Positions 22,779 to 41,592 are shown, numbered from the stretch's first letter. The stretch: DNA of 58,241 nucleotides from Candidatus Limnocylindrales bacterium (GCA_036559965.1 DATBSD010000091.1:1-58241); one strand, 5' to 3'. Numbers and translations are program-made. Notes: generated by a model not told the origin, from the letters alone.

Positions 22779-22785
22779 GGCGATC

Positions 22786-24702: not shown

Positions 24703-24721
24703 CGCCGGCGGCACGGTCGCG

Positions 24722-25780
24722 ATGACCGAGCAGTCGAGTGAGGAGATCGTCCGCGGCGATCGACCGGCCACGAGCCGGCCGGTGGGGGGCCTCGCGCACG
24801 GCCCCCTGAAGCGCACGTCGCAAGGGTCGTGGGTCGGCCGCGCCCTCGTCCGCCTGACCGAGCGCGCCGTCGTGCTGGGCTATCGTTTCGCCTCCTGGCT
24901 GCTCGGCGTCGTGCCGCTCGGCATCAGCCTGCCGCTCGCCGGCGGCGCGATGCGCGTGGCCTGGGTCGTCTGGCCGGCCAAGCGACGAGTCATCCTCGCC
25001 AACGCGTCGCACATCCTCGGCCGCCCGACCGACGACCCCGCCGTGCGTCGCCTCGCGGGGCGCGTCTATCAGACCTATGGTCGCTACATCGTCGAGCTCA
25101 TGCGCCTGCCGTCGCTGCCGCCGGAGGCACCGGCGGCGATGATGGATTCGCGCGGCGAGCGCGGAGTCGATGCCTTCGCCGAGCTCTGGGCGAGGCTGGA
25201 GGCCGAGGGCCGGGGCATCATCGCCCTGTCCATCCACATCGGCAGCATCGAGACGCTCATCGCCGCCATGGCCGCACGCGGCTTCCCGACGTACGGCCTG
25301 GCCGACGACTCGTCGTATCCCGAGCTCTACGCCCTGCTCCAGGCCCAGCGCAAGCGCTGGGGCGTCGACGTCTTCCCGTGGAAGCAGCTCCGTCGCGTCT
25401 ATGCCGTCCTGCGCCAGCCGGCGTTGCTCGGCCTGCTCGTCGACTGGGGCTACCGCGCCGACGGCATCCCGGTGCGGCTGTTCGGCGACTGGACGACGCT
25501 GCCGGCCGGCCCGGCCGTGCTGGCAGCCAAGACGAACGCGGTCATCGTGCCCATCGTCTGCCGTCGGCTGCCCGGCGGCCGATTCAGTGCCGAGTGGCTC
25601 GACCCGATCGAGGTCGTCGACGACGATCCGGCGACGATCAGCGCCGCCACGCAGGCCGTCGCCCACGCCCTCGAGGGGATGGTCCGGCCGGCGCCGGAGC
25701 AGTGGTACACGTTCAAGCCCATCTGGCCGACATCGGTCGATGAGGCCGCCGAGCTCGCGGCACGGGTGACGTCGTCGTGA
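24722..25780 (+). CDS. LpxL/HtrB-family lysophospholipid acyltransferase (PIM acyltransferase PatA-like), copy 1
   Basis: H-x4-E motif in LSIHIGSIE. LABLAT-family layout (Y..YGRYIVE...LLVDWGY...GPAVLA). Sits in the position that patA occupies in pgsA1-patA-pimA operons. Confidence 0.75.
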   Translation: MTEQSSEEIVRGDRPATSRPVGGLAHGPLKRTSQGSWVGRALVRLTERAVVLGYRFASWLLGVVPLGISLPLAGGAMRVAWVVWPAKRRVILANASHILGRPTDDPAVRRLAGRVYQTYGRYIVELMRLPSLPPEAPAAMMDSRGERGVDAFAELWARLEAEGRGIIALSIHIGSIETLIAAMAARGFPTYGLADDSSYPELYALLQAQRKRWGVDVFPWKQLRRVYAVLRQPALLGLLVDWGYRADGIPVRLFGDWTTLPAGPAVLAAKTNAVIVPIVCRRLPGGRFSAEWLDPIEVVDDDPATISAATQAVAHALEGMVRPAPEQWYTFKPIWPTSVDEAAELAARVTSS

Positions 25781-26715
25781 CAGCGGGGCAGCGCGGCAAG
25801 CTGGCGGCCTTGCGTGCCGTGACCTGGCTCGCCTGCCATCTGCCGGAGCGGCCGCTCCATCGCTGCTTCGCGGCCATCGGCGCCGCGCTCTACCTCGTCG
25901 ACGGCACGCGGCGCGACCTGGCGCGCCGCAATCTGACCCGGATCTGCGCCTGGCTGGTGGCCGAGGGCCGGGCCACGCCGCGGGTCGCCCGGGCGGCGCG
26001 AGACCGACGCGCGATGGACCGCCTCGTCAGGTCGGCGTTCAGCCACCACGCCCGCTACTACCTCGAGGTCCTGCGCATCTCGACCCTCACCGGCGCCTAT
26101 CTCGAGGCGCGCCTCGACTTCGGGGACTGGGAGCCCATCAGGGCAGGCTTCCGCGCCGTTACCGAGAAGCGCGGCCTGATGTACATCGGCATGCACTACG
26201 CGTCGATGGAGGTCCCCGCCCGGTACGCCATCCTCCAGACCGGGGCCATCGCCCTGACGCCCATGGAGACCGTCGACGATCCGGCCATCCAGGCCTGGGC
26301 CGAGGAGCAGCGGCAGCCCATCGGACTCGAGATCATCGACCCGGCACGTGGCGGCCGGCGCATGCTGGCCTACGCCCGCGAGGGCGGCCTGCTGACCGTC
26401 GTCGGCGACCGGCCGCTGGCCGGGACCGCGCGTCCCGTCGAGCTCTTCGGCGCGCCGGCCATGCTGCCCGTCGGCCCGGCGCTGGTCGCGGTCGAGACGG
26501 GCATCACCTGCCAGATCGCCGTCTCGCGCCGGACGGGGCTGGGCACGTATGAGATCGACCTCCACGAGCTGGCTGTCCCGGCTCCCGGCGGACCGCTGCG
26601 CGAGCGCATGGCGACCTTCATGGCCGCTGAGGCGCGTGCCATGGAAGGCATCGTCGCGGTCGCCCCCGAGCAGTGGTGGACGTGCATGTACCCGATCTGG
26701 GATGACATCCGATGA
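25777..26715 (+). CDS. LpxL/HtrB-family acyltransferase, copy 2 (paralog of the preceding gene)
   Basis: The start is a GTGA overlap with copy 1. H-x4-E motif in IGMHYASME, plus LTVVGDRP and MLPVGPALVAVETG. Confidence 0.7.
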   Translation: MTAGQRGKLAALRAVTWLACHLPERPLHRCFAAIGAALYLVDGTRRDLARRNLTRICAWLVAEGRATPRVARAARDRRAMDRLVRSAFSHHARYYLEVLRISTLTGAYLEARLDFGDWEPIRAGFRAVTEKRGLMYIGMHYASMEVPARYAILQTGAIALTPMETVDDPAIQAWAEEQRQPIGLEIIDPARGGRRMLAYAREGGLLTVVGDRPLAGTARPVELFGAPAMLPVGPALVAVETGITCQIAVSRRTGLGTYEIDLHELAVPAPGGPLRERMATFMAAEARAMEGIVAVAPEQWWTCMYPIWDDIR

Positions 26716-27527
26716 GCGCGTCAGGCCCGGGGTCGGTCGGTCGCGCCGACCTCCACATCCACTCCGCCGCGTCCGATGGCGTGGCCGGCGTTGACGCCAT
26801 CCTGCGTCATGTCCAGGAGCAGACCGACCTCGACGTCATCGCCATCACCGACCACGAGCGCATCGACGCCGCCCTGGCGGCGCAGGCCATGGCTGCCGAT
26901 CGCGGCGCACGCTTCGAGGTCATCGTCGGCGAGGAGGTCACCACTCGCAGCGGTCACCTGCTCGGCCTCTTCCTGCGTCAGCCCGTGCCGCCGCTGCGAT
27001 CGCTGCGCTGGAGCATCGCGGCCATCCACGAGCAGGGCGGCCTGGCCATCCCCGCACATCCGCTCGTGCCGGTGCCGATGAGTACGTCGGCACGTCGCAT
27101 CCGAGCGCTGCTCGACGATGCCGACCGCGCGGTCCAGCCGGACGCGCTCGAGGTCTTCAACCCGACGACCGTCGGCCGGCGCTGGCATCCGCGCGTGGTC
27201 GCCTTCGCCGCCCAGCACGGCCTGCCCGGCGTGGGCAACAGCGATGCCCACCTGCCGGCGCACATCGGCCAGGTCACGACCGGCTTCGAGGGCCACACCG
27301 CAGAGGACCTGCGCCGCGCCATCGAGGCCGGCACGACGACCTGGCAGGGCGACTTCTACCCGCCGCTCGCCCAGGTCGGCATGTTCGGGCACCAGGTCCG
27401 CAAGTACGCTCGCGACGTGCGCGACGAAGTGCGCGGCAAGCTGCTGCGTGACGGCACGGGACGTGACCTGGGCTATCCGGGTGGGCGGCAGCGACCGCCG
27501 CGCTTCGAGATCGACCGGCGGCCATGA
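26712..27527 (+). CDS. PHP-domain metal-dependent phosphoesterase
   Basis: ATGA overlaps at both ends. PHP motifs ADLHIHSAASDG, IAITDHERID, GEEVTT..GHLLG, IPAHPL and NSDAH. Confidence 0.8.
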   Translation: MSASGPGSVGRADLHIHSAASDGVAGVDAILRHVQEQTDLDVIAITDHERIDAALAAQAMAADRGARFEVIVGEEVTTRSGHLLGLFLRQPVPPLRSLRWSIAAIHEQGGLAIPAHPLVPVPMSTSARRIRALLDDADRAVQPDALEVFNPTTVGRRWHPRVVAFAAQHGLPGVGNSDAHLPAHIGQVTTGFEGHTAEDLRRAIEAGTTTWQGDFYPPLAQVGMFGHQVRKYARDVRDEVRGKLLRDGTGRDLGYPGGRQRPPRFEIDRRP

Positions 27528-28708
27528 AGATCGGCCTCGTCACGCCGTATGTCTATCCGCTGCCCGGCGGCGTCAACGAGCACGTCCGCTACCTCTACGA
27601 CGGCCTCCTCGAGCGGGGCCACGAGGTGCGCATCATCAGCAGCACGCACGGCCTCCAGCGCGCCGCCGAGGGCGATGTCATCCGACTCGGGCGTGGCTTC
27701 AGCGTGCCGACCAACGGTTCGATGGGCACGGTCACCGTCTCGCCCCGCTACCTGTCTCAGATCAGCCGCCTGCTCGATCGCGAGCGCTTCGACGTGCTCC
27801 ATTTCCACGAGCCGTTCGTGCCGCTCCTGTCGCCATTCCTGCTCCGCGAGTCGAACAGCGTCAACGTGGCCACGTTCCATGCGTACGCCGGCTGGAGCCC
27901 GTCGTACGAGCTAGGCAGCCGGTTCATGGGCCGGCTCGCCGCGCGCCTGCACGGCCGCGTCGCGGTCAGCGCCGCCGCCCGCCACTTCATCGATCGCTAC
28001 TTCCCGGGCGACTACAAGGTCATCCCCAACGGCGTCGACCTGGGTCGCTTCGGCGACCTCGAGCCCATCGAGCAGTGGCGCGACGGGACGGCCAACCTGC
28101 TCTTCGTCGGCCGCTTCGAGCAGCGCAAGGGCCTGCTCGTGCTGCTCCGCGCGTTCCGAGCCCTGCGGCGTTCCGGTCGCGACTGCCGCCTGCTCGTCGT
28201 GGGTCGCGGGCCGCAGGAGCGCGAGGCGCGACGCTACATCGCCACGCGCGGCCTGACCGGCGTCCATCTGCTCGGGCGGGTGAGCGACCAGGAGAAGGCG
28301 CGCCTGTTCGCGACCGCCGACGTCTACGTCTCGCCGGCCACCGGCCAGGAGTCGTTCGGCATCGTGCTGCTCGAGGCGATGGCCGCCGGCACGGCCATCG
28401 TGTGCAGCGACATCCACGGCTACAAGGGCGTCGTCCGACGCGGTCAGCAGGCGCTCCTCGTGCCGCCGCGCGACCCCGTCGAGCTGGCCGAGGCCATCGG
28501 CAGCCTGCTCGACGACCCGGCGCTTCGGGCTCGCATGGGCGCCTCCGGACGACAGCGGGCCGAGCAGTTCTCGTGGCCGAGCATCGCGGCCAAGGTCGAC
28601 GACTACTACGGCTTCGTCATCCGCCGACTCGCGAACCAGGGCGCGCTGCCGGCAGATTTTCGGTCGGACGTGCCGGCCGCGCCACGGCCTCCCCGAGCGG
28701 TGGCCTGA
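27524..28708 (+). CDS. pimA: GT4 (GT-B) GDP-mannose-dependent phosphatidylinositol alpha-mannosyltransferase PimA-like
   Basis: The N-terminus MKIGLVTPYVYPLPGGVNEHVRYLYDGLLERGHEVRIIS closely parallels the PimA N-terminus. The C-terminal E-x7-E region is GQESFGIVLLEAMAAGTAIV. Confidence 0.8.
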   Translation: MKIGLVTPYVYPLPGGVNEHVRYLYDGLLERGHEVRIISSTHGLQRAAEGDVIRLGRGFSVPTNGSMGTVTVSPRYLSQISRLLDRERFDVLHFHEPFVPLLSPFLLRESNSVNVATFHAYAGWSPSYELGSRFMGRLAARLHGRVAVSAAARHFIDRYFPGDYKVIPNGVDLGRFGDLEPIEQWRDGTANLLFVGRFEQRKGLLVLLRAFRALRRSGRDCRLLVVGRGPQEREARRYIATRGLTGVHLLGRVSDQEKARLFATADVYVSPATGQESFGIVLLEAMAAGTAIVCSDIHGYKGVVRRGQQALLVPPRDPVELAEAIGSLLDDPALRARMGASGRQRAEQFSWPSIAAKVDDYYGFVIRRLANQGALPADFRSDVPAAPRPPRAVA

Positions 28709-29700: not shown

Positions 29701-32700
29701 TCAGGCCGTCGCGGAGCCGCCTTCTGTGGGGTCCTCGTCGGGCCCGGGGGCCCAGCCGCCGGAACGCCAGACGGCGGCTGCGTACATCGCCGCACCGGCC
29801 AGACAGGCGACCATCGCAGTCAGGGCCACCGACTCGAGGCTCAGGAAGCTCGTCTCGGTCGCGCCGGCTGTGTTGACCGCGAACTGGAAGTCGTAGTTGT
29901 AGGTCGAGAGCGGCAACGTCTGGAACAGCCGCGCCAGGCCGGTCGGCACGGGCAGTGCCGCGATCGTCGGCTGGAAGGCGACGAACCAGATGATCATGGC
30001 GCCGAACGTGCCGATGATGAAGCGGCGCGGATCGCGCGCCCCGATGACCAGCCAGGCGGCGACGGCGAGCGGCAGGCCGAGCAGCAGCGCACCGACGTAC
30101 GGCCCGATGTCGCCGATGGGTGCGGTCACGAGCGGTGTCTCGGCGAAGCGCGACTGGACGATGGCCACGGCCACGCCCGTCGTGACCGCCGTGATGAGCA
30201 GCCAGATGGCGCCCGGCGGCAGCCTGCCACCCGGCGTCGCCTCGAAGTCGGAGCGCCGCCGGCGGAGACCGAGCGTGTGCGCCTGCCAGGCCAGGATGAC
30301 GATGCCGACGAGCACGATGAGCAGCGACACGGCGGCCCGCTCGGTGAGCACGAACGCCTCGCTCACGTAGCCGCATGCCTGCGAGCCCGGATTGACCTGG
30401 GCGACGCCCGAGACCGCGCAGAGCGGCACGCGCAGCAGCCAGAGCAAGGGCACCGCGACGAGCATGGCCGCGACCGACACGCGTGCCAGCAGCCAGGTCC
30501 GTGCCGAAGGACCGTGCCACAGCTCGGCCAGGAAGTAGGCCAGGCCGATGATCACGAACGGCAGGCTCGTGTAGTAGTGGTACTGGAAGGTCGCCCGGTC
30601 GATGCGCGCCCAGGGCAGCCACTGGCAGGCGAAGCCGATGAGCACCAGCGCGAGGGCCAGGCTGCGGCGGTGCCAGGCGGTGAAGGCGAGCCAGATCATG
30701 GCCGGCACCGAGAGCCAGAAGAGGACGAGGTTGCCGGCGTCGTAGATGACCGCCGTCCACCCCTCCGCCAGGTTGCCCAGGTAGAACCAGACCGGCTTGA
30801 GATCGAAGGGCCAGGCCCACCACGGCGACGATGCGGCGTGCGTCGCGCGCAGGTTGTCGTGGTACTCGTACATCTGGATCTGGAGCGCGAGCAGGGTCTG
30901 GCCTTCGTTGCCGGCCGGGAACGACTCGATCCAGCGGTTGCCGAGCTCCACCCAGGGAGCGAAGCTGATGACGTAGACGACGACCGGGATGGCCAGCACG
31001 CAGCCCAGCGCCCACAGCCAGGGCAGCCCGAAGCGCCAGCCGGGTCGCAACCAGCCACGCGGCGGTTGACCGGCCGGCAGGCCTCCCGCGGGCTCGATGG
31101 TGACCGTTGGGGCCAGGGGTCCACGGCCGCGCGACGCGGCCATCGCCAGGCCGATGTAGGCCAGGACCCCGACCGCGACGAGGCCGAGCGAGGCCGCCAG
31201 GAGGGTCGTGGGATCGACCATGCCCTCGCTCGGCAGGCTCGAACTCGCGGCCACGAGCAAGAGCGTGCCCACGATGCCCAGCACGACGGGCGCGGCCACC
31301 GCGAAGCGTGCCTCGTCGCGCGACCAGCGGACCGGCCGCAGGACGATGGCCACGGCCAGCAGCAGGGTGACCGCGAGCGTGATGACCACGAACACGCCAT
31401 TGCCCTTGACGCTCACCAGGATCGGCGCCGCGACGGCCGCGAAGACAAGGCCGACGAGGAGGACCGTCCTGCCTGCCCGGGAGACATGCAGGACGAGACC
31501 GGTGAGCAGCATCGCCAGGATGGTCACCACGATCGTGCCCACGACGTCCGGCGTGCTCGACGTCGGCGAGCTGATGGCCACCCAGCCCAACACGCCGGTC
31601 ATGGCGATGAGCGCGGCCAGGGCGATGAGCCTGCCGACCGCCGAGCGGATGAGGATGAGCAGGACGATGCCACCGATGGCGTATAGCCCGACCCATTTGG
31701 CGGCCAGCGCGAGGCCCAGGATGACGCCCAGCAACGGCAGGCCCACGAGCAGGGCGCTCCAGCCACGCCAGCGCCCGAGCCAGAGCAGGGCGAAGACGAG
31801 GTAGGCGGCGGCGATGAAGGCGCCGACATAGACATCGTTCATGCCGATGCGCGACTGGGCGAACATCATGCCGTCGACGAGCACCAGCCCGGCCACGGCC
31901 AGCCCGACCGTCCGACGGCGGATGAGGACGCGCGCCAGGAGGTAGATGAGCGCCGCCGTGAGGGCGCCCAGGATGACGCCCGGCAGCCGCCACCCGAAGG
32001 CGTTGCGGCCGGTCTCGACGACGGCCACCTGGCCATCGGCCGCGATGGTCAGCAGCTGTTGGCGATCCTGGCTCGGGCGATCGGCATCGGCATCGAGCGC
32101 CCATGCGACCGGCGGCGCCGGCAGCAGCGCGTCGGCATAGACGGCGTTGGCGTGCGGCTCGACGACGTAGACCGTCGAGGCGTCGCCGTCCGGTGTCCGC
32201 CCGAGCACGTGGAGCATCTGGGTCGCGGAGTCGTACACGAGGTCGTACACGGCCGCGGGCATCCAAACGTCATCGCGCTTGACCGGCGCCTGACCCTTCT
32301 TGACTTCGACCCGCAGCAGCCGCTCGCCGGTCGTGCCATAGAGCGTCGGCTCGGCGGGACCCTCGACGTGAACGACCGATGTCACCGGCGCATCCGTGGC
32401 GATGGCATCGACGCGAGCCAGGGTGGCCGCGTCGAGCAGCACGAGGCCCTCCGTCGCGGCGACGGCCACGAGGTCGCCGCTCTCGATCGTCGTGCCCGGC
32501 AGCTCGCCTTGGTCGAGCGCCTCCTGGATGTTGATGGCCTCGTCCTGTTCGAGGTTCGAGACGACGGTCACGACGCCCTCGGCACCGACCAGCAGTGCAC
32601 GGATCCGCGTGGCGTCGTCGGCCAGGATGCCGGCCAGCGTCTCGGCCAGGCTGCCGGGCTCGTCGACCGCGCCGACGTCGACGACGAGGCGCTGGCCGCC

Positions 32701-35253
32701 GGTCGTGGCCGCAGCGTCCGCCGCCCCAGGCACCGCCGCCTCGGCAAGGATGGTGCCGTCGGCCAGGTCGACGATGGCGACACGGCCGTCGTCGAGCACG
32801 GCGGTCAGGCGCTCGCCGGTGTCGTCGACGATCATCGCCTGGACGGGCGCGCCGAGGTCGCCGAGTCGATCGGCCGACGGCACGATGGTCGGGTCATCGC
32901 CGGCCCGGACGTCGTCGAGGTAGCGCGTGTCGAGCGTCCAGAGTCCGCCGGACATGTCGCTGATGACGAGCCGGTGGCTGGTCTCGTCGATGGCCAGCGC
33001 CTTGGGCTGGGCGCCATCGAGCTGGAGCTCGGTCACGAGCTGCCGGCCGGCGAGGTCGAACGCGCGCACACCGCCGTCACCCGAGACGTAGAGCCGGTCG
33101 CCGGCGCGGCCGGCCGTCGATGCCACGGCGTCCCAGCGTCGCTCGATGACGGCATCGCGTGGCGCGAAGCCGAGCGCGGAGGTCGCGCTGACCTCGTCGT
33201 CACCGAAGAGCACGATGCCGGCGGCCATGAGGTACTTGGCCAGGTGCGGGTGCGTGTACTCGTAGATGGCATGCGGCTCGCCGTACCGCCAGTGCTGGAG
33301 GAACTCGGTCGCGGTACGAGCGTGGTAGACCTCGTCGAAGTACATGTCGTAGGGCTCCTCGACGCGCCAGCCCCGCAGGGTCAGCGCCGAGACGAGCAGC
33401 AGCAGGGCGACGAAGACGTCGAGACGATCGATCCGGCCGGGCGGCTCACCGGCCAGCTCGGCGCTCCGATCGCGGCGTCGGAGGCCGCTGCCGACCTGGC
33501 GGCGGACGGCCGACCGAAGGCCGGCCAGCAGCGGCGCATCGTCGCCCTCGTCGTCGTGCTCCGCGGACCCTGCCGGATCTCCGCCCATGGTCACGACCGC
33601 GGCGGCACGCGTTGCGGTCGCCTCGCGGTCGGACGGGGCAAGGGCCACGGGCTCGGGTCGCGGCCGAACCTCCTCCAGCCAAGGCGCGTCGACGACCGCG
33701 CCAAGTGCTGCCAGCCCGGTCGGATCCGGCACCCGCGCAGGTTCGTCGCGCGACGGGCTGGGCGCGGTCATGGGGTCGGGCGCGTCGAGCGCGGCCGGCT
33801 CCATGTCGACGAGGGGCGTCGCGATCACGCTGGCGTCGGTCCGCAGCGTCGCCCGAACGACCTGCCAGAGCAGGAACAGGAAGACACCGGTCGTGACGAA
33901 GACGCTGCCGAGCAGGACCGGCGTCGCCCGGAAGTCCGGGCCGAAGAAGAAGTCGTCGAGGTTCGGGGTGGCCCAGATGGGCGAGCTCAGCACCGCGTGC
34001 AGGTTGACGAAGGTCGAGATGGCCAGGATGACGGTCGCCACGAGGTAGCGCCGATCGAGGATGGCGAGCAAGGGCAGCAGCGAGAAGACCGGGAACAGGT
34101 AGCGCTCGTGGACGCGCGTCGGCAGCATGAAGAAGGCGAGGCAGAGGTAGGCGGCGGCGAGCAGGATCGTCAGGCGCTCGTCGCGCCGGACGAGCAGCGC
34201 CAGCCCGACCACGAAGCCGCCCACCAGAAGCACCGTCCCGATGACGACCCCGGGCACGGGTCCGATGAGCCCGATCGTGTCCGACGGCCAGCGCCCCAGG
34301 CCCGCCTCGACCATCGCGCTCTGATCGCCCGAGCCCACCAGCGCCCAGGGGTTGAGGGCGTTGACGGTCAGGTAGGCGTACGTGCCGGCGGCCCGGCCGT
34401 ACTGGATGATGAGACCGGGCATATCGAGGCCGAACGGCGCCACGACGACGACCAACAGGCTGGCGCCGACGGCCGCCGATGAGACCAGGCGCCAGATGCC
34501 GGTCTCGTGCTCACACCATCGCCGATACCACGATGGCCCGGCCGTCACCCGCGGACCGCTGCCCGGGAGCAGCAGGTGCCGGCGCAACAGCACGACGGCC
34601 AGCAGGGGCACGAGGACCACGCCGTACTGCGGTTTCGCGAGGCCGGCCAGCACGGTCACCGCCGTGGCTGCCTCCTCGTGGCCCTCGACGAGCAGCGCGA
34701 CCATGGCCAGGGTCAGCAGCGCGCCGATCGCGTCGACCTGGCCCCAGATCGCCGAGTCGTACCAGGTCACCGGGTTGAACACGTAGAGCGCGGCGGCGAG
34801 CAGCGCCAGCTGCCCGCCTCGGGGGCGGTCCCCGAACCAGCGCATGGCCACGACGTAGAGCAGCGCGCCGGTCGCGATGTCGGCCAGGATGGGCGGCATC
34901 TTGAGCAGCGCCGTCGTCGTCGCCACGCCGGTGCCGTCGGCGGCACCGATGATCTGGCCGAGTCGCCCCAGGAACCCCAGCACGAGCATGTAGGCGGGCG
35001 GGTAGTCGGACAGGCCGGGCACGTCGTAGAAGCCCGCAGCGCCGACCTCGACCATCCGGAATGCCCAGGCGGTGAAGGTCCCAAGGTCCGACTCGAAGCC
35101 GGACTTTGGCAGCAGGACGTATGCGATGATGAGCCGGAGGGCCAGGGCGGCCAGCAGCAGGATCGTCAGGGCTGGGACGGCCGATGGCGCCCGGACCGAG
35201 CGAGTCGACGCTCCGAGGCCCCGATCGGGCGCACCCGCCCCGGGCGTCGTCAA
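29701..35253 (-). CDS. roughly 1850-aa polytopic fusion glycosyltransferase: N-terminal PIG-V/Gpi18-like GT-C module, acidic/Pro-rich linker, then a PMT (GT39) protein-O-mannosyltransferase-like GT-C module interrupted by a roughly 400-aa repeat-rich soluble insertion, plus an extended C-terminal TM region
   Basis: Lies in the 3' 5.5 kb of track ORF 29701..36072. The start is taken at TTG 35253, with GGAGG 11 nt upstream; an alternative TTG lies at 35271. There is no in-frame ATG/GTG before the first TM helix. Module 1: LPKSGFESDLGTFTAWAF...GLSDYPPAYMLVL. Module 2: YDMYFDEVYHARTA...YTHPHLAKYL, FGWRLPGVILGALTAALIYLLAR, SRIGMNDVYV, SSPWWAWPF, GNLVLFW, ATFQYHYY. Confidence 0.75.
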   Translation of the reverse strand: MTTPGAGAPDRGLGASTRSVRAPSAVPALTILLLAALALRLIIAYVLLPKSGFESDLGTFTAWAFRMVEVGAAGFYDVPGLSDYPPAYMLVLGFLGRLGQIIGAADGTGVATTTALLKMPPILADIATGALLYVVAMRWFGDRPRGGQLALLAAALYVFNPVTWYDSAIWGQVDAIGALLTLAMVALLVEGHEEAATAVTVLAGLAKPQYGVVLVPLLAVVLLRRHLLLPGSGPRVTAGPSWYRRWCEHETGIWRLVSSAAVGASLLVVVVAPFGLDMPGLIIQYGRAAGTYAYLTVNALNPWALVGSGDQSAMVEAGLGRWPSDTIGLIGPVPGVVIGTVLLVGGFVVGLALLVRRDERLTILLAAAYLCLAFFMLPTRVHERYLFPVFSLLPLLAILDRRYLVATVILAISTFVNLHAVLSSPIWATPNLDDFFFGPDFRATPVLLGSVFVTTGVFLFLLWQVVRATLRTDASVIATPLVDMEPAALDAPDPMTAPSPSRDEPARVPDPTGLAALGAVVDAPWLEEVRPRPEPVALAPSDREATATRAAAVVTMGGDPAGSAEHDDEGDDAPLLAGLRSAVRRQVGSGLRRRDRSAELAGEPPGRIDRLDVFVALLLLVSALTLRGWRVEEPYDMYFDEVYHARTATEFLQHWRYGEPHAIYEYTHPHLAKYLMAAGIVLFGDDEVSATSALGFAPRDAVIERRWDAVASTAGRAGDRLYVSGDGGVRAFDLAGRQLVTELQLDGAQPKALAIDETSHRLVISDMSGGLWTLDTRYLDDVRAGDDPTIVPSADRLGDLGAPVQAMIVDDTGERLTAVLDDGRVAIVDLADGTILAEAAVPGAADAAATTGGQRLVVDVGAVDEPGSLAETLAGILADDATRIRALLVGAEGVVTVVSNLEQDEAINIQEALDQGELPGTTIESGDLVAVAATEGLVLLDAATLARVDAIATDAPVTSVVHVEGPAEPTLYGTTGERLLRVEVKKGQAPVKRDDVWMPAAVYDLVYDSATQMLHVLGRTPDGDASTVYVVEPHANAVYADALLPAPPVAWALDADADRPSQDRQQLLTIAADGQVAVVETGRNAFGWRLPGVILGALTAALIYLLARVLIRRRTVGLAVAGLVLVDGMMFAQSRIGMNDVYVGAFIAAAYLVFALLWLGRWRGWSALLVGLPLLGVILGLALAAKWVGLYAIGGIVLLILIRSAVGRLIALAALIAMTGVLGWVAISSPTSSTPDVVGTIVVTILAMLLTGLVLHVSRAGRTVLLVGLVFAAVAAPILVSVKGNGVFVVITLAVTLLLAVAIVLRPVRWSRDEARFAVAAPVVLGIVGTLLLVAASSSLPSEGMVDPTTLLAASLGLVAVGVLAYIGLAMAASRGRGPLAPTVTIEPAGGLPAGQPPRGWLRPGWRFGLPWLWALGCVLAIPVVVYVISFAPWVELGNRWIESFPAGNEGQTLLALQIQMYEYHDNLRATHAASSPWWAWPFDLKPVWFYLGNLAEGWTAVIYDAGNLVLFWLSVPAMIWLAFTAWHRRSLALALVLIGFACQWLPWARIDRATFQYHYYTSLPFVIIGLAYFLAELWHGPSARTWLLARVSVAAMLVAVPLLWLLRVPLCAVSGVAQVNPGSQACGYVSEAFVLTERAAVSLLIVLVGIVILAWQAHTLGLRRRRSDFEATPGGRLPPGAIWLLITAVTTGVAVAIVQSRFAETPLVTAPIGDIGPYVGALLLGLPLAVAAWLVIGARDPRRFIIGTFGAMIIWFVAFQPTIAALPVPTGLARLFQTLPLSTYNYDFQFAVNTAGATETSFLSLESVALTAMVACLAGAAMYAAAVWRSGGWAPGPDEDPTEGGSATA

Positions 35254-35286
35254 CAGGCGACCGGCCTCCAAAGAACGAGCGACGAG

Positions 35287-36723
35287 GTGGAGGGGAGTAT
35301 AGCAACGGCGCCTGCCGACACCCGTTCGGCCGATCCAGCCGCTGCGGCCCCCGGCGACGGCATCGCCGGCCGCCTCGGACGCCTCGATCCCCGCTGGCTG
35401 ACGATCGGTTTCGTGGTCCTTGGCATCGTCGTCTACATCGTCAGCAACCCCAGCCGCCAGAACTTCTACAACCACTTCGTGTGGCAGGCCGACGCCTTCC
35501 TCCAGGGCCGCGCCTGGATCCCCTGGCCGCTGACCGATGGTCAGTTCCAGAACGGCTACTTCCAGGACGTCTTTCCCATCGGGGACGGGCGTGGCCTGCT
35601 GCCGTTCCCGCCACTGCCCGCCATCGCGTTGCTGCCGTTCGTGGCCGCGTTCGGGCTGGGCACGGACGCCGCTCTCGTGGCGGCCGTGCTCGGCGGCATC
35701 AACCTCGGGCTTGCCCATCGGATGGTCCGGCGCCTCACGAGCGATGCCCTGGTAGCCATCCTGGCCGCGCTCTTCTACGGCTTCGGGACGGTCGCCTGGT
35801 ATGCCGCCATGCTCGGCAGCACCTGGTTCCTGGCACATGTCGTCGCGTCGACGTTCCTGCTGCTGGCCATCACCGGCGCCCTCGACGCCGACCGCCGCTC
35901 CGCTCGCGAGGCGGCTGCCGTCGCGGCCGAGGACGAGGGCGCCGGATGGCGACGTGCCTGGCCGCCCGATGGGCGCCAGGTCATTGCCGGGCTGCTGTTC
36001 GGCATGGCGGCGGCGGCGCGCCTGACGACGCTCCTGGCGGCGCCCTTCTTCGTCTTCGTCGGCGGCGGCCACTCGGCGCTCCGTCGCGGCCTGTCAGCGG
36101 GCATCGGCGCGGTCATCCCGGTGCTCCTGCTGCTGGCCTACAACGTGGCCACCAGCGGCCAGCTCTTCCACCCCGGGTACGAGCACCTCTACCAGACCGA
36201 GTACACGCCCGTCCCGTCGGGCCTGCTCGCTCAGCTCGTGCCGGCCCTTGAGGGCATCACCTATCACCCCGGGGAGTGGGCCCTCCAGGACCCCCGCTAC
36301 GTGCCGCAGAACCTGCTCATCCTCCTGGCCTGGCTGCCCGAGGTCCACACCGAGTGCGGTTTGGCACTGCTCGACCAAGGCTGCGCGTTGATCCGACCCG
36401 ATAGGTTGGGCATGAGCGTCCTGCTCACCAGCCCCGCCTGGCTGCTGGGGCTGCCCGTCGTGCTGCGCGAGTGGCGCCGGCGGATCGTGCTCGGGTCGGC
36501 GCTCGCGGTCGGCGCGGTCACGCTCGTCAACCTCATGCACTTCAGCCAGGGCTGGGTCCAGTTCGGATATCGCTTCAGCAACGACGCCGCGCCATTCGCC
36601 CTGCTCCTCGTGACGCTCGGGCTGGCGCGCTACGGCGTGCGCTGGTGGACGGCCGGCCTGGTGCTGCTCTCGATCGTCATCAACGCCTGGGGCGTCTACT
36701 GGGGCGTCGTCCTCGGCTGGTGA
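35287..36723 (+). CDS. GT-C fold membrane glycosyltransferase (ArnT/PMT_2-like), paralog A
   Basis: GTG 35287 is an internal start of track ORF 34507..36723; the upstream part of that ORF is antisense to the giant gene. After TM1 comes the loop motif WQADAFLQGRAWIPWP...LPFPPLPAIALLPFVAAFG. The C-terminal motif VQFGYRFSNDAAPF is shared with the next gene. Confidence 0.7.
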   Translation: MEGSIATAPADTRSADPAAAAPGDGIAGRLGRLDPRWLTIGFVVLGIVVYIVSNPSRQNFYNHFVWQADAFLQGRAWIPWPLTDGQFQNGYFQDVFPIGDGRGLLPFPPLPAIALLPFVAAFGLGTDAALVAAVLGGINLGLAHRMVRRLTSDALVAILAALFYGFGTVAWYAAMLGSTWFLAHVVASTFLLLAITGALDADRRSAREAAAVAAEDEGAGWRRAWPPDGRQVIAGLLFGMAAAARLTTLLAAPFFVFVGGGHSALRRGLSAGIGAVIPVLLLLAYNVATSGQLFHPGYEHLYQTEYTPVPSGLLAQLVPALEGITYHPGEWALQDPRYVPQNLLILLAWLPEVHTECGLALLDQGCALIRPDRLGMSVLLTSPAWLLGLPVVLREWRRRIVLGSALAVGAVTLVNLMHFSQGWVQFGYRFSNDAAPFALLLVTLGLARYGVRWWTAGLVLLSIVINAWGVYWGVVLGW

Positions 36724-36729
36724 GGGGCC

Positions 36730-37968
36730 TCAGAAGCTGACGAAGTCGAGGACCGTGATGACGTAGATGCCGTAGGCGTGGACGAGGATGCCGATGAGGA
36801 TCGCGAGGCGCGCGGGCAGGGAGATGCGGCGCACGAAGAGCATGCCCAGCATGATCCACAGGATGGGCGCCACGTCGAGGCTGAACCGGTAGCCGAACTG
36901 TGTCTCGCCGACATTGCCGTGGGTCACGATGGGGATGAGCGCGCAGAGGATGGCGACCCAGCCGAAGACCACGAACGGCTCGCGCCGGCGGAGCTTGATG
37001 AGCCAGAAGTAGATCGGCGTCGTGAACGTCAGCGCGAGGCCGGTCCAGTTGGGCCGGAACCAAGGGAAGCCGTCGGCGAAGTCGAAGCCGCGGACGAAGA
37101 TCGTGTGCAGGTGCCTCGGGATGTAGCTGATGGACAGGATGCCATCGCGATACCAGGGCTCTAGGAGCACGCCGGGGATCCTTTCGTAGCCGAAGTCGAA
37201 GGGGCTGCCGAAGCGAGCGATGTTGTAGAGCGCGACGAGCACCGCCGGCACGGCCAGGCCGACGACGAACAGCCCCGCGTCGGCGAGGCGGCGCCGATCG
37301 GGGATGGCGAGGCGCGGCGCGACCTGCACCCCGGCGTACAGCGCGAGGTAGAGCGGCAGGGTCAACCCGACCGGCAAGCGTGAAGCGGCGGCCGCTCCCA
37401 GGCACAGCCCGGCAACGACCGGCCAGCGCCGATCGAGCGCCAGCCAGAGCGCGAGCAGGGACCAGAAGACACCGTTGACGCCGGCGAACAGCCACGACGT
37501 GCCCATGCCGGCCGCCCACCAGAGCACGCTGCCGACGGCGAACGCGGCCGTCAGGGAGCGTCGCGGCAGCGGCGCCACGCCCAGTCGTCCCAGGATCGTC
37601 CACAGGATGGCGACGCTCAGGCCGCCCAGGATGGCCGCCGCGTAGCCCTGGTCGAAGCCGGCCCCGAAGACGGCCACGAAAGGCAGCACCGAGATGGCCG
37701 GCATGGGCGGATAGGGCACGTACCAGCTGCCATCGGGCCGGTCGACATGCTCGATCCAGGGCATCGGCTCGATGATGTGGAGCCGGCCGTGGAGGAAGGC
37801 GTCGGCGAGCGGCACGAAGGCGTCCAGGCCGACCGGCTTGGGACCGGTCCACCAGTAGAGCAACGCGGCGCCGGCGGCGATGAGGGCGAAGGTCGTCAAC
37901 GCACGCCACGCGCTAAGGCCCTCGTCGGGTGTCGCCGAGGCGTCCGCCGCGGCGGGGGCAGCGGCCAT
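36730..37968 (-). CDS. GT-C fold membrane glycosyltransferase (ArnT/PMT_2-like), paralog B
   Basis: The product is 412 aa. Motifs: LADAFLHGRLHIIEPMPW...VPYPPMPAISVLPFVAVFG and TQFGYRFSLDVAPI. Converges on paralog A with a 6-nt gap. Confidence 0.75.
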   Translation of the reverse strand: MAAAPAAADASATPDEGLSAWRALTTFALIAAGAALLYWWTGPKPVGLDAFVPLADAFLHGRLHIIEPMPWIEHVDRPDGSWYVPYPPMPAISVLPFVAVFGAGFDQGYAAAILGGLSVAILWTILGRLGVAPLPRRSLTAAFAVGSVLWWAAGMGTSWLFAGVNGVFWSLLALWLALDRRWPVVAGLCLGAAAASRLPVGLTLPLYLALYAGVQVAPRLAIPDRRRLADAGLFVVGLAVPAVLVALYNIARFGSPFDFGYERIPGVLLEPWYRDGILSISYIPRHLHTIFVRGFDFADGFPWFRPNWTGLALTFTTPIYFWLIKLRRREPFVVFGWVAILCALIPIVTHGNVGETQFGYRFSLDVAPILWIMLGMLFVRRISLPARLAILIGILVHAYGIYVITVLDFVSF

Positions 37969-37989
37969 GGCCCCGACTATACTGCCGCG

Positions 37990-38805
37990 ATGTCCGTCCC
38001 CGCCGCCTCAACGACCACGGCGACGGCGCCTGCCCAGGATGCCGGATCGAGTCGTGTCGCCGCCCTGACCTACTTCTTCCCGGCGCACAACGAGGCCGAG
38101 AACATCGAGGCGCTCGTGGCTGAAGCGCTGGAGTCGCTGCCGGCCCTGGCCGAGACGTTCGAGATCATCGCCGTCGACGACGGCAGCAAGGACGGCACGG
38201 CGGCCATCGCCGATCGCCTCGCCGAGCAGCACCCCGGCGTCGTCCGCGTGGTCCATCACCCGGTCAACCGTGGCTACGGCGCCGCACTGCGGAGTGGTTT
38301 CGCGGCCGCCGGTCACCCGCTCATCGCCTTCACCGACGGCGACCGGCAGTTCCGCGTCGCCGACATCGGCCGCCTGCTGGCTCGGTCGGCTGCAGCCGAC
38401 GCGCCCGACGTCGTCGTCGGCTACCGCCTCCGACGCGCCGACCCGACCATCCGCCTGGTCTACGCCAGGGCATATCGCTTCTGTCTCCGGCTGTTCTACG
38501 GGCTGCCGGTGCGCGACGTGGATTGTGCCTGCAAGCTCTTCCGTCGCGAGGCCCTCGAGGGCATCCGCCTCGAGTCGGGCGGCGCCTTCCTGTCGGCCGA
38601 GCTGCTGATCAAGGTTCGCGCCCGTGGGCGCAGCATCGGCGAAGTCGGCGTGCCCCACCATCCGCGCACGGCCGGCCAGGCATCGGGCGCCGATCCGCGC
38701 GTCGTGGCGCGTGCCATCCGCGACTTCTGGCGGCTGCGGCTGCGGCTCTGGTTTCGACGTGGCCCCGCACTCGAGCGCGGCGAACCGGTGCTCGGTCCGT
38801 CCTAG
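37990..38805 (+). CDS. GT2 polyprenol-phosphate sugar synthase (Ppm1/DPM1/GtrB-like)
   Basis: Internal ATG 37990 of track ORF 37747..38805. Motifs: YFFPAHNEAENIE, IIAVDDGSKDGT, NRGYGAALRSGF, AFTDGDRQF, CACKLFRRE. Confidence 0.8.
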   Translation: MSVPAASTTTATAPAQDAGSSRVAALTYFFPAHNEAENIEALVAEALESLPALAETFEIIAVDDGSKDGTAAIADRLAEQHPGVVRVVHHPVNRGYGAALRSGFAAAGHPLIAFTDGDRQFRVADIGRLLARSAAADAPDVVVGYRLRRADPTIRLVYARAYRFCLRLFYGLPVRDVDCACKLFRREALEGIRLESGGAFLSAELLIKVRARGRSIGEVGVPHHPRTAGQASGADPRVVARAIRDFWRLRLRLWFRRGPALERGEPVLGPS

Positions 38806-39293
38806 TCGGATCGGCGGCCGGGCTCGTCGTCGAGCGAGTTGACGAACTCGCGGAAGACCGACAGCTTCTCGTCCTCGTCGGGCTCCGGCGTCACACCGGC
38901 GCGGTCGAGCACGATGTCGGTGGCGAAGATGGGCACCCCGACGCGGATGGCCAGGGCGATGGCGTCGGATGGTCGCGCGTCGATGTCGACGGTCCGCTCC
39001 CCGACCTCGAGGATGAGCCTCGCTCGATAGGTCTCGTCGGAGAGGTCCGAGACGATGACCTGCTTGACGACCACCCCGAGCTCCTCGAGCGTCGTCGCGA
39101 ACAGGTCGTGGGTCAGCGGTCGCTCGGGCGTGATGCCCTGGAGCCGGCGGGCGATGGCGTCGGCCTCGTTGACGCCGATCCAGATGGGCAGGTAGAGGTC
39201 GCGATCGACGTCCTTGAGGATGACCACATGCTGTGACGAGTGCATGTGCACGCGCACGCTCTCGACGACCATCTCTTTCAGCCCGTGCGCCAT
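38802..39293 (-). CDS. bifunctional nuclease (DUF151/BFN) domain protein
   Basis: Internal ATG 39293 of track ORF 38802..39428. Motifs: VVILKDVDRDLYLPIWIGVNEADAIA, RPLTHDL, DARPSDAIALAIRVGVPIF. Confidence 0.75.
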   Translation of the reverse strand: MAHGLKEMVVESVRVHMHSSQHVVILKDVDRDLYLPIWIGVNEADAIARRLQGITPERPLTHDLFATTLEELGVVVKQVIVSDLSDETYRARLILEVGERTVDIDARPSDAIALAIRVGVPIFATDIVLDRAGVTPEPDEDEKLSVFREFVNSLDDEPGRRSD

Positions 39294-39327
39294 GTCGCGA
39301 TTATCCCACGGGCCTACGGCCGCGCCA

Positions 39328-41592
39328 TCAGGGCTTCGGCTTCTTGGTCGGCTTCGGCGTCTTGGTCGGCTCGGGGCTGACCGAAGGCGATGCGTCCGGC
39401 GACGGGGACGCGGCGACCTCGGTAGCATCGGTCAACGGGCTGGCCAGCAGGCGCCCGGCGTCGGCCCAGACGAGGACCTTGGGCTGGCCAGCCTCGGCGC
39501 CCTCGACCACGAACATACCGCGCAGATCGTCGAGCGGCTCGCCGCCTTCGATGCCCACGAACTGCTCGAGGTAGTCACCGCTCGACTTCTCCATGGCCAG
39601 GATGCGGTCGTGCTCGCCGTCCCAGAGCCAGGTTCGGCCCTCGCGCCGGAAGGGGTCGATGGCGAAGAGTCGGTAGTCGTGGCCGGGTCGGACGTCGCCG
39701 TCGTCGGGTGGCAGCTCGAGCTCGTAATCATCCGCCCGACCGCTCTGGTACCGCGTCACGCCATCCCGCGTCAGGGCGTACGCGTCACCGTCGATGAGCA
39801 GGCCGCGGAACGCCGCCACGTCGCTCGGCGTGGCCAGATACTCCGCCGGGTCGCCCGGGTAGCCGCTGCCGTCGGCGGTCGGCGGATAGCGCAGGATCTG
39901 CTTCGAGCTGGGATCGACGACGTAGAAGAAGTAGAGGCCGGAGTCGGCGTTCCGGGCATAGGTCGCCGTGTCCCTGATGTCATCGCCCAGCGCCGTGTCG
40001 CCGCCGAGGCGCAGCTTGGCCAGCGTGCCACGGCCCTTGGCGTCGGACGGTCGCCAGCGCCAGAGCGTCCCGGCACGGTCGAGGATGAGCAGGTCGGGCC
40101 CGCCGAGCGTCATGAGCCATGGCTCGCCGATGCCCTTGCCCGGCCCGTCGCCGGCCTTGACCACGGCCGACGCGCTCTGCTTGGCGAGGTCGATGCGGAT
40201 GATCGACTTCGTGCTCGCGTCGATGACATAGGCGGCGCCATCGGGTCCGCGCGCGACGTCGATGATGTCCGCCTCCGGCGACAGCTCTGCAGTCAGATCG
40301 AACACGACCGAGCTGGCGACCGGCTTGACGAGGTTGATCCGATCGAGGCCATCGGAGACCTCGCTGCGAAGCGGTCGCAGGACCGCCGCCGAGACACCCA
40401 GCCCATCCGCCTTCTCGAGCTCCGCCCACGCCTCGCGCAGCAGGCGCTGCGCCTTGACCACATCGCCGGCGATGAGATCGCCCTCGCCGAAGACCTGATC
40501 GATGCGTTCCTGAGCCAGCGCGAGCGCCTGGTCGCCGGCGTTGACATCGCTGATCTGGTCGTCCCGGCCGGGCAGCGCCCCGCCGACCAGCCAGAGCCCC
40601 ACTCCGAGGGCGACGACCACGCCCAGGAAGGCGAGCGCCGCGAAGCCGGCCCGGCGCTGCGAATCACGTTTCGAGGCGAGCGGCGTGACGCGCCGATAGC
40701 GCGACCGGCGGCGGGGCATGAACCCGATGAGGCGATCGATGATCGAGGCTCCGGCGAGCCCGATCCCGAGGCGCAGGTCGTTGGCCCGCTGGCCGACCGC
40801 CCCAGCGGCGCCGGCGATGGGATCGGCGAGCGGGATGGGCGATCGATCGGGGGCGCCGGCCAGCGGCTCGGCCGGCCGCACCGGCACCAGCTTGTGCTCG
40901 GCGCGCGTGGCCGGGACCTCGGACGCCTCGAGCGCCAGGATGGCGTCCGAGCCGCTGCCCTTGGCAGCCACGAAGAGGTGATGGAGGTGCTCCACGGCGG
41001 ACTGCGGATGAAGCGTCACGAGGGCGTCCTTGAACTCCTCCGTGCCGACCATCCGGGTCACGTTGCCCGACACCAGGAGCAGCGAATCGCCGACGGCGAT
41101 CTCACCCCGCCAGACATCGACGTGCAGCTCGTCGACGGTCGGCAGCCCCTCGCCGCGATCGTCTTCCGGGAGCGTCAACAGGCGAGCCTGGCGGACGAGA
41201 TAGGCGTCGGCATCGCCGATGGTCGCCACGTAGAGCTCGTGGCCGCGCACGACGGCCACGCAGGCCCCGATGGCGCCGGCAGCCAGGCCGTGGCTCTCGC
41301 GTGCCTGGCGAAGCAGCTGGTTGGCCGCCCGGACCGACTTCTCGAGGCAGATCGGGATGCCCGCGGACTCGTCGTAGTAGTAGCGGTCACGGACGGCGTC
41401 GGCCACCAGCCGGGCGGCCTCGGCCGGCTTGCCACCGCTCCGCGGGCGGACGGTCACGACGCCGTAGAGGTTGCCCTTCGAGCGGCTCGTCGAGCCGATG
41501 GTCGGCTCGTGGTGGATGACCTGATCGGGAGACGTCGACAGGCGGTCGGCTCCGGGCACGAGGCCGATCTTGAGGTGCAGTCGGACGGCCAT
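39328..41592 (-). CDS. membrane protein with a cytoplasmic PP2C/PPM-like (possibly degenerate) domain, one TM helix and a large extracytoplasmic repeat (beta-propeller-like) domain with a PT-rich tail
   Basis: PPM-like segments ACVAVVRGHELYVATIGDADAYLVRQARLLTL, VGDSLLLVSGNV and GSGSDAILAL are present; the canonical DG.GG segment reads VRPRSGG. TM helix: AALAFLGVVVALGVGLWLVGG. The C-terminal tail is SPSPDASPSVSPEPTKTPKPTKKPKP. Confidence 0.6.
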   Translation of the reverse strand: MAVRLHLKIGLVPGADRLSTSPDQVIHHEPTIGSTSRSKGNLYGVVTVRPRSGGKPAEAARLVADAVRDRYYYDESAGIPICLEKSVRAANQLLRQARESHGLAAGAIGACVAVVRGHELYVATIGDADAYLVRQARLLTLPEDDRGEGLPTVDELHVDVWRGEIAVGDSLLLVSGNVTRMVGTEEFKDALVTLHPQSAVEHLHHLFVAAKGSGSDAILALEASEVPATRAEHKLVPVRPAEPLAGAPDRSPIPLADPIAGAAGAVGQRANDLRLGIGLAGASIIDRLIGFMPRRRSRYRRVTPLASKRDSQRRAGFAALAFLGVVVALGVGLWLVGGALPGRDDQISDVNAGDQALALAQERIDQVFGEGDLIAGDVVKAQRLLREAWAELEKADGLGVSAAVLRPLRSEVSDGLDRINLVKPVASSVVFDLTAELSPEADIIDVARGPDGAAYVIDASTKSIIRIDLAKQSASAVVKAGDGPGKGIGEPWLMTLGGPDLLILDRAGTLWRWRPSDAKGRGTLAKLRLGGDTALGDDIRDTATYARNADSGLYFFYVVDPSSKQILRYPPTADGSGYPGDPAEYLATPSDVAAFRGLLIDGDAYALTRDGVTRYQSGRADDYELELPPDDGDVRPGHDYRLFAIDPFRREGRTWLWDGEHDRILAMEKSSGDYLEQFVGIEGGEPLDDLRGMFVVEGAEAGQPKVLVWADAGRLLASPLTDATEVAASPSPDASPSVSPEPTKTPKPTKKPKP

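Follow-up and report, generated by a model that had tools for sequence, protein, structure and literature searches.

The stretch of DNA analysed here, called the window throughout, comprises 58,241 nucleotides from a Candidatus Limnocylindrales bacterium (GCA_036559965.1 DATBSD010000091.1:1-58241), and the subject of this account is a run of three genes within it that encode two small polytopic membrane proteins, P1 and P2, and a family 2 glycosyltransferase (GT2), P0003. P1 (35287-36723, plus strand) has a GTG start and 478 residues, and is a member of an unnamed family with the GT-C glycosyltransferase fold, in which it falls within a subfamily termed A. P2 (36730-37968, minus strand), a P1 homologue of 412 residues assigned to subfamily B, is convergent with P1 across a gap of 6 nucleotides and divergent from the gene for P0003 across a spacer of 21 nucleotides. 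P0003 itself (37990-38805, plus strand) has 271 residues and is predicted to be a polyprenyl-phosphate hexose synthase. P1 is in turn divergent from a giant minus-strand gene that carries a protein O-mannosyltransferase (PMT) module. The G+C content of the window is about 71%, which results in long spurious open reading frames (ORFs) on both strands, and coding frames were assigned from third-position GC, plotted frame by frame. The giant gene's minus-strand frame holds until about position 35200, where a switch occurs, and the signal then tracks the plus frame of P1 at 35287-36723, the minus frame of P2 at 36730-37968 and the plus frame of P0003 at 37990-38805, before passing to a BFN-domain gene at 38802-39428 (minus strand). 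The plot and the translations bear out the positions of the three genes, and the lengths of the two membrane proteins, that had been proposed in an earlier sequence-only reading of the window.

The paralogy of P1 and P2, which that reading had deduced from shared motifs, is real and far beyond chance, as BLASTP aligns the two proteins end to end with 29% identity over 426 columns and an E value of 6e-24. The motifs themselves are all present, namely ADAFLQGRAWI (P1 residues 68-78) and ADAFLHGRLHI (P2) in loop 1, the proline-rich segments PFPPLPAI..LPFVAAFG in P1 and PYPPMPAI..LPFVAVFG in P2, and the C-terminal motif, which reads QFGYRFSNDAAP in P1 and QFGYRFSLDVAP in P2. A profile, A1, was built from 52 homologues (30 P1-type and 22 P2-type sequences) and searched against 1.84 billion representative proteins, the matches being grouped into clusters at 50% identity. 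By this measure the family comprises 4408 clusters at E<=1e-3, of which 946 remain at E<=1e-30, and its members are mostly 380-430 residues in length. Close homologues number in the thousands, and those that bear a name are all annotated as 'hypothetical protein' in metagenome-assembled genomes of Candidatus Limnocylindria or Limnocylindrales (Chloroflexota) and lack precomputed Pfam domains. One distant member from Candidatus Beckwithbacteria carries the UniRef name 'Glycosyltransferase RgtA/B/C/D-like domain-containing protein'.

The sequence-only reading could not name the subfamily and had suggested profile searches to place it, and in these searches none of the named families proved to fit. 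Against Pfam at E<0.1, neither P1 nor P2 matched any family besides a sub-threshold match to Ost5, which was discounted as it falls on hydrophobic segments. The PMT profiles PF02366, PF13231 and PF16192 gave no match to either protein at that threshold, and the Asp-Glu (DE) loop-1 motif is absent from both; nor did the GT87 profile PF09594 or the TMEM260-like profile PF11028 (DUF2723) match them. The only curated model that repeatedly detects members of the family is NCBIfam NF047440, the putative glycosyltransferase LA_3751/LA_3752 of Leptospira, whose name also spans adjacent genes. P1 scores 26.6 bits against its cut-off of 200 and P2 does not match it, and distant members match this model alone, weakly (20-43 bits) over most of their length, with E values from 1e-5 to 2e-11. 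Since these scores of 20-43 bits compare with a cut-off of 200, the kinship is one at the superfamily level only, and the NF047440 family is itself uncharacterised. A literature search on LA_3751 returned nothing, and searches on Chloroflexi phosphatidylinositol mannosides (PIMs), on GT-C and DUF2723 proteins and on Limnocylindria glycosyltransferases returned nothing about the P1/P2 family.

Structure prediction proved more telling. An AlphaFold2 model of P1, made with the A1 alignment, has a mean predicted local distance difference test score (pLDDT) of 91 and a predicted template-modelling score of 0.92, and in a Foldseek search of the PDB its 16 best matches (probability >=0.8) are all GT-C proteins, among them ArnT, ALG12, Pmt4, PIG-U, PimE, PglB, STT3, ALG9, ALG3 and EmbA/B. 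Unrelated transporters come next, with probabilities below 0.1. The similarity of the small proteins to the GT-C fold, which had been part of the original proposal, is thus confirmed at the level of the model, and the conclusion drawn is that the P1/P2 family has a predicted GT-C fold and falls outside the GT-C families that have been solved or curated.

The best structural match to P1 is ArnT (GT83, PDB 5f15), with a Foldseek probability of 1.00 and a template-modelling (TM) score of 0.48, and like ArnT the two proteins cross the membrane repeatedly, their N terminus lies in the cytoplasm, and their first outer loop is long and contains short helices. They differ from ArnT and the PMT_2 group in that no match to PF13231 or PF02366 is found at E<0.1 and that the sequence-profile search of the PDB is empty; they are also much shorter (about 390-480 residues), lack the C-terminal periplasmic domain, and carry motifs of their own (A-x-A-F-L-x-G-R, P-F-P-P-x-P-A and Q-F-G-Y-R-x-x-x-D). 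PimE (GT87, PDB 9dm5), the polyprenyl-phosphate-mannose-dependent mannosyltransferase of PIM synthesis, shares with them the GT-C fold, a length of about 400 residues, the lack of a large soluble domain and an occurrence in genomes with genes of the phosphatidylinositol (PI) and PIM type, and it is matched by the P1 model with a probability of 0.99 and TM scores of 0.39-0.46. Unlike PimE, however, the family gives no match to PF09594, the identity in the structural alignment is 15-16%, and the linkage to PMT and TMEM260-like genes described below is not a feature of PimE.

Residue conservation was counted column by column in the 52 close homologues and in 140 diverse representatives of the family. 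Topology was read from the number of Lys and Arg residues in the loops between model helices across 192 sequences, following the positive-inside rule. The K+R-rich loops of P1, read as cytoplasmic, are 149-153, 201-228, 395-398 and 450-452, and the segments predicted to lie outside are loop 1 (54-127), whose helix 110-125 is taken to be an interface helix, the large loop 291-377, and the loop 418-434 with the C-terminal motif. The sequence-only reading had singled out the Asp of the first loop-1 motif, and while its codon is correctly placed at 35491-35493 (plus strand, D69), its conservation fails: the four commonest residues in the 30 P1-type sequences are D 21, E 4, Q 3 and M 1, the 22 P2-type sequences have D 17, N 4 and E 1, and the 140 representatives include D 52, E 17, Q 14, N 9, R 7 and Y 7. 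D69 was rejected as the catalytic Asp on account of this variation. The site that is always acidic is instead D94 (codon 35566-35568, plus strand), equivalent in the BLASTP alignment to E73 of P2 (codon 37750-37752, minus strand), which is D in 30/30 P1-type and E in 22/22 P2-type sequences, and D or E in 136/140 representatives. As the only universally acidic position of the extracytoplasmic loop 1, D94 is a candidate for the catalytic acid of P1.

Several other polar positions are nearly invariant. R245 (codon 36019-36021, plus strand), found in 52/52 close homologues and 137/140 representatives, sits at the tip of a short helical hairpin (residues 229-257 in the secondary structure of the model) that is predicted to lie inside the membrane, and is a candidate for binding the donor phosphate. 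The motif Q425-F-G-Y-R429-F-S-N-D433 (36559-36585, plus strand) occupies a predicted extracytoplasmic loop between the last helices, and its Q425, R429 and D433 are kept in 131, 136 and 130 of the 140 representatives, respectively; for Y285, N286 and Y298 the corresponding counts are 131, 134 and 127. The proline-rich segment P-F-P-P-x-P-A is also conserved in the family. With the exception of R245, the near-invariant polar residues fall in predicted extracytoplasmic loops or at helix ends, and the pattern is the one that a GT-C active site on the outer side, with an Arg to bind phosphate, would be expected to show, in which the roles of individual residues can be assigned only provisionally.

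In a quick FastTree run with 104 sequences, the P1-type and P2-type proteins form clades with supports of 100 and 99, respectively, but they do not form a sister pair. P1 is joined, with weak support, to the members located ahead of TMEM260-like genes, which together make up subfamily A, and P2 lies within a larger group, subfamily B. By this tree P1 and P2 stem from two old subfamilies. A recent tandem or local duplication was considered for the pair and rejected, as the two proteins fall in separate deep clades and are paired only where the identity to P2 is about 70% or more.

For P0003 the comparison with known enzymes is more direct. It scores 96 bits with PF00535, whose cut-off is 23.3, and its best NCBIfam matches, PpgS, a haloarchaeal dolichyl-phosphate (Dol-P) hexose transferase and ArnC, all extend over the whole catalytic domain; other GT2 families of NCBIfam align mostly to the N-terminal part only. 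The protein stays below every equivalog cut-off (59 bits versus 370 for PpgS, 56 versus 529 for ArnC). A profile of 43 orthologues, A2, searched against the PDB, retrieved ArnC (E 9e-16), DPMS (1e-13) and GtrB (2e-13), and the DDGS motif and D116-G-D118-R-Q120 of P0003 align to DDGS and DADLQ of ArnC, with D116-G-D118 invariant in the 43 orthologues. An AlphaFold2 model (pLDDT 89) has ArnC, GtrB or DPMS as each of its 18 best Foldseek matches, with TM scores of about 0.70 and root-mean-square deviations of about 3 A. These matches are all polyprenyl-phosphate glycosyltransferases, and they uphold the earlier assignment of P0003 to the carrier-charging type of GT2; the alternative named at that time, a soluble polysaccharide synthase unrelated to polyprenol carriers, is not what the fold matches show. 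P0003 thus shares with DPMS/Ppm1, GtrB, ArnC and PpgS the GT-A fold, the DDGS and DxDxQ motifs and an Arg-rich acceptor region. It has no transmembrane helix, and so differs from ArnC and GtrB, with their C-terminal transmembrane hairpin, and from archaeal DPMS, with its four helices; instead it ends in an amphipathic Arg/Trp-rich helix (residues 236-262). Carrier synthases without transmembrane segments have been characterised, namely mycobacterial Ppm1 and PpgS, and the build of P0003 is compatible with this type.

The giant gene next to P1 (29701-35190, minus strand) encodes about 1830 residues, with an N-terminal polytopic module followed by a PMT (GT39) module that matches PF02366 with 49 bits and PF16192 with 47 bits and carries the loop-1 Asp-Glu motif as FDEVYH. 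With its two modules, P1 and P2, all within 29701-37968, the count of four GT-C modules in 9 kb given by the sequence-only reading is right. A mechanical ORF at 29701-36072 (minus strand) overshoots the real start of the giant gene by about 880 nucleotides and runs antisense to the 5' half of P1. It is not in conflict with the P1 gene, because the third-position GC frame switches at about 35200, and such an overrun, an artefact of high GC content, could lead gene callers astray. Further upstream, at 22639-28708 (plus strand), Pfam and NCBIfam matches identify an inositol-lipid operon of phosphatidylinositol-phosphate (PIP) synthase, Ino1, two PatA-like acyltransferases, a PHP-family phosphoesterase and a GT4 glycosyltransferase, the best matches including PIP synthase (156.7 bits; cut-off 170), Ino1, and the PIM acyltransferase PRK07920 twice. 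The PHP-family gene (26712-27527, plus strand) keeps the same place within this operon in 57 related loci, and its product could be the enzyme of the phosphatidylinositol-phosphate phosphatase step. The window was also searched for PIG-V-like, PAP2 and TMEM260-like genes, and none was found.

The wider arrangement was followed in 80 Limnocylindria loci, which the family profile had picked out and in which all genes of the window were searched for by tblastn. A P1 orthologue is present in 80/80, within a conserved order that runs, on the left, from Ino1, the two acyltransferases, PHP and GT4 (plus strand) to the giant PMT gene (minus strand) and P1 (plus strand), and continues on the right with a variable slot, the GT2 gene (plus strand), and BFN, PP2C, recF and dnaN (minus strand). 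The giant PMT gene is found near P1 in 77/80 loci and the GT2 gene in 74/80, contig ends explaining most of the misses, and the inositol-lipid operon is kept upstream wherever the flanks extend far enough (GT4 in 59 loci, Ino1 in 41). This strongly conserved gene order supports the earlier proposal of a dedicated extracytoplasmic glycan pathway. In two loci, L048 and L053, the BFN-domain gene 3' of the GT2 gene lies on the strand opposite to that in every other locus, and a local inversion is suggested by this.

What varies in the arrangement is the slot that separates P1 from the GT2 gene. In the 74 loci with both flanks it holds a TMEM260-like GT-C gene in 62 (PF11028, 92-93 bits; for example L010:11311-12927, plus strand), is empty in 10, and holds a P2 orthologue on the opposite strand in 2; the latter, L001 and L002, are also the closest relatives of the window. 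A further locus, L087, in which the identity to P2 is 71%, has the same layout as the window. P2 orthologues at 61-62% identity sit elsewhere in the genome, where they adjoin a GT-C gene of the PIG-V family (PF04188, 30 bits; cut-off 22.4) as well as a PAP2 phosphatase gene. In locus L083, at 8770-9975 (minus strand) and 11260-11946 (plus strand), the P2 orthologue, with about 61% identity, is divergent from the PF04188 gene and followed by the PAP2 gene, and L088 is likewise arranged. The adjacency of P1 and P2 is therefore limited to a sub-lineage, most relatives having the TMEM260-like GT-C in the slot. In the assembly to which the window belongs (2.44 Mb, 90% complete), P1 and P2 are the only members of the family and no PF11028 gene was found, and with P2 in the slot this implies that in this sub-lineage a B-type member occupies the position that the TMEM260-like enzyme has in most relatives.

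Beyond the Chloroflexota, the association with PMT and TMEM260-like genes is found again on contigs of the candidate phyla radiation type. On a Beckwithbacteria contig (L084), a member of 387 residues overlaps a TMEM260-like gene of 538 residues by 7 nucleotides, with GT4 and LytR-CpsA-Psr (LCP) genes nearby. On L089, a PMT gene of 855 residues and a gene of 421 residues that matches GT87 weakly (E 2e-4) diverge from a member of 386 residues, which overlaps a TMEM260-like gene followed by PMT_2 and LCP genes. On L086, two members of 385 and 384 residues, which represent subfamilies A and B, overlap in tandem and run divergently from a PMT gene of 806 residues and a DUF2298 gene. Because the second of the two members is nearest to the representatives of subfamily B (42-44% identity), the A-plus-B pair beside PMT is, as judged from similarity, one that recurs in an unrelated, low-GC contig. 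The overlap of 7 nucleotides between a member and the next GT-C gene is exact in all three contigs, and an LCP ligase gene lies within a few kb of the member in each. No significant BLASTP similarity was found between the N-terminal module of the giant gene and the DUF2298 and GT87-like genes beside PMT on these contigs. More distant members occur in other contexts, such as beside tetratricopeptide repeat (TPR) proteins and in polysaccharide clusters, and across phyla the ties of the family with PMT and TMEM260-like genes are overall more consistent than those with the inositol-lipid operon.

The linkage extends to gene fusion. One protein of the representative library, P0331 (2012 residues), combines the architecture of the giant gene, with the N-terminal module and a PMT module with insert, and a C-terminal P2-type module, and is thus a triple GT-C fusion. 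Another, P0313 (925 residues), has an N-terminal P2-type module joined to a second polytopic domain of about 450 residues that has no Pfam match. A third, P0341 (1008 residues), is an Arg/Pro/Ala-rich out-of-frame read-through across a P1 orthologue and a TMEM260-like gene; it was rejected as a true fusion, being evidently a miscalled ORF in a high-GC contig.

PMT (GT39) and TMEM260 (DUF2723, PF11028) are in this way the most constant genomic partners of the family, joined to it by divergent or overlapping genes and by one fusion. There are also likenesses in the proteins themselves, in that Pmt4 is among the fold matches of P1, and that an hhalign comparison with 37 TMEM260-like sequences, weak in itself (probability 27%, E 7e-4), is topologically coherent over the first helices and maps position 62 of P1 onto the invariant Asp of the TMEM260-like motif W-D-T-x-E-F-Q. 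P1 and P2 nevertheless differ from both partners in lacking the DE or WD(T/S)xE loop-1 motif, the aligned Asp position being variable, and in having no MIR, TPR or propeller domain, and they differ from TMEM260 in an insertion of about 26 residues that splits the loop-1 motif.

Taken together, these observations can be read as a lipid-carrier glycosylation unit, formed by the three genes within a wider multi-GT-C module, and the likelihood of this reading is judged to be slightly better than even. The secure part of it is that a carrier-sugar synthase at the cytoplasmic face and two extracytoplasmic GT-C proteins form part of a conserved multi-GT-C module. P0003, as a peripheral-membrane GT2, would move a hexose from a nucleotide sugar to polyprenyl phosphate at the cytoplasmic face, the loaded carrier would be flipped across the membrane, and P1 and P2, as catalytically competent GT-C transferases of subfamilies A and B, would consume it on the outer face, with an active site that may comprise the loop-1 D/E94, R245, Y285-N286, Y298 and the Q-F-G-Y-R-x-x-x-D loop. 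That the two proteins use a sugar donor linked to a lipid phosphate is supported by context, namely the carrier-type GT2 in the same operon or locus in 74/80 loci. The hexose is most likely mannose, with GDP-mannose as the donor, a suggestion that derives from the PMT and TMEM260-like partners only. PMT and TMEM260 both use Dol-P-Man (PMC10214176; bioRxiv 10.64898/2026.07.15.738315), and mannose is the most economical guess since in every characterised case these enzymes use Dol-P-Man or polyprenyl-phosphate-mannose. The P1/P2 pair would thus belong to a conserved module whose core is a PMT-type protein O-mannosyltransferase together with, in most relatives, a TMEM260-like GT-C, and in this module the pair might extend the O-mannose chain installed by PMT or serve a separate class of sites. 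As the acceptor, a secreted protein or its PMT-installed O-mannose is tentatively preferred over the inositol lipid, with a likelihood that falls just short of even, because the association with PMT and TMEM260-like genes spans phyla, includes a fusion, and persists on candidate-phyla-radiation contigs with no visible inositol-lipid genes.

Several points weigh against this interpretation. The fold scores of P1 are moderate (Foldseek E values of 2e-3 to 0.3, TM scores of 0.39-0.48), and the P1 sequence and the family profile, searched against PDB chains, found nothing meaningful. P0003 is about 22% identical to mannose-, glucose- and 4-deoxy-4-formamidoarabinose (Ara4FN)-specific enzymes alike. 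The deep A/B split rests on a FastTree analysis, in which the support of 83 for joining P1 with the candidate-phyla-radiation members is weak. At position 62, which aligns to the catalytic Asp of TMEM260-like proteins, this P1 has Asn and the family as a whole is variable (D 36, N 25, Q 18, K 13), and for this reason the proposal of D94 as catalytic acid is an argument from conservation and not from structural superposition. This last point also bears on the idea that one or both small proteins are non-catalytic, serving as a scaffold or regulator of the PMT enzyme, to which the fusion with a PMT-containing protein would lend itself as well, since it implies physical association. There is a precedent for GT-C partner subunits in the mycobacterial Pmt complex, which is reported to include a second GT-C protein, Rv0051, besides Pmt (bioRxiv 10.64898/2026.07.15.738315). 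Nevertheless, some ten polar residues with a predicted position at the outer face are near-invariant in 140 very diverse members, including the always-acidic loop-1 position and the Arg/Asp motif, and because this is the pattern of a conserved active site, a scaffold role is disfavoured and considered very improbable.

The remaining points against a protein acceptor come from the locus, and they are shared with a different explanation, that of lipoglycan elongation, in which P1 and P2 would use polyprenyl-phosphate-mannose from P0003 to extend the PI-anchored glycolipid of the upstream operon, as counterparts of PimE, MptA, MptB and MptC in the lipomannan synthesis of actinobacteria. The Limnocylindria locus does adjoin a PI/PIM-type operon, which is retained upstream of the giant gene and P1, and the P2 orthologues located elsewhere adjoin a PIG-V-family GT-C and a PAP2 phosphatase. 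Both settings fit a lipid acceptor, and PimE is among the fold matches of P1. Yet P1 is transcribed away from this operon and shares its own with the TMEM260-like gene in most relatives, the sole fusion seen joins the family to a PMT-containing protein and not to a PIM enzyme, and on the candidate-phyla-radiation contigs the PMT/TMEM260-like link is kept with no inositol-lipid genes visible nearby. Moreover, the block adjoins recF, dnaN and the origin region, and its conserved order may reflect a stable chromosomal neighbourhood instead of a shared function. Elongation of a lipoglycan is accordingly regarded as unlikely, albeit as a serious reading and the likeliest of the alternatives. Many GT-C families, such as Emb, Aft and the O-antigen-type enzymes, act on polysaccharides, and P1 and P2 could by analogy glycosylate or polymerise a wall glycopolymer, attached to peptidoglycan by LCP proteins, or another envelope polysaccharide. 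The LCP genes near members on all three candidate-phyla-radiation-type contigs would agree with this, as would the occurrence of more distant members in polysaccharide clusters with WecA/MraY-like, Bac_transf, GT2 and GT4 genes; in the window, however, there is no LCP, polymerase, flippase or chain-length gene near the locus. The most constant neighbours across phyla are also PMT and TMEM260-like enzymes, and every characterised member of these two groups glycosylates proteins (PMC10214176; bioRxiv 10.64898/2026.07.15.738315), which makes a wall polymer an improbable acceptor.

The lipid-carrier glycosylation unit, with a protein as the tentatively preferred acceptor, can be placed in a broader scenario. 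PMT, a GT87-like partner, a TMEM260-like enzyme and members of subfamilies A and B might together be an ancient multi-GT-C machine for protein O-mannosylation, distributed from the candidate phyla radiation to the Chloroflexota, in which A and B would act as dedicated subunits or successive enzymes that build oligomannose O-glycans on secreted proteins, and in which the TMEM260-like and B-type proteins would be interchangeable within the donor-synthase operon. This scenario goes well beyond the unit itself and is thought doubtful, its likelihood lying clearly on the lower side; if true, it would bring a new glycosyltransferase family and a new catalytic motif, composed of the loop-1 D/E and Q-F-G-Y-R-x-x-x-D.

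Most extracytoplasmic glycans are built by GT-C enzymes, yet the P1/P2 family, with its thousands of sequence clusters, has no Pfam model, no solved relative that is detectable by sequence, and no studied member. Its linkage and fusion to PMT and TMEM260-like genes in the Chloroflexota and the Patescibacteria suggest that bacterial protein O-mannosylation is wider than the actinobacterial paradigm, and may also involve more enzymes. Should the acceptor be the inositol lipid instead, P1 and P2 would be the first candidates for lipomannan-type elongation enzymes outside the Actinobacteria. Either acceptor would give a function to a large family of 'hypothetical proteins' of abundant soil and freshwater bacteria, and since its members adjoin enzymes that mannosylate proteins even in bacterial phyla far removed from each other, the family is probably a component, so far unstudied, of a glycosylation system of the cell surface that is widespread.

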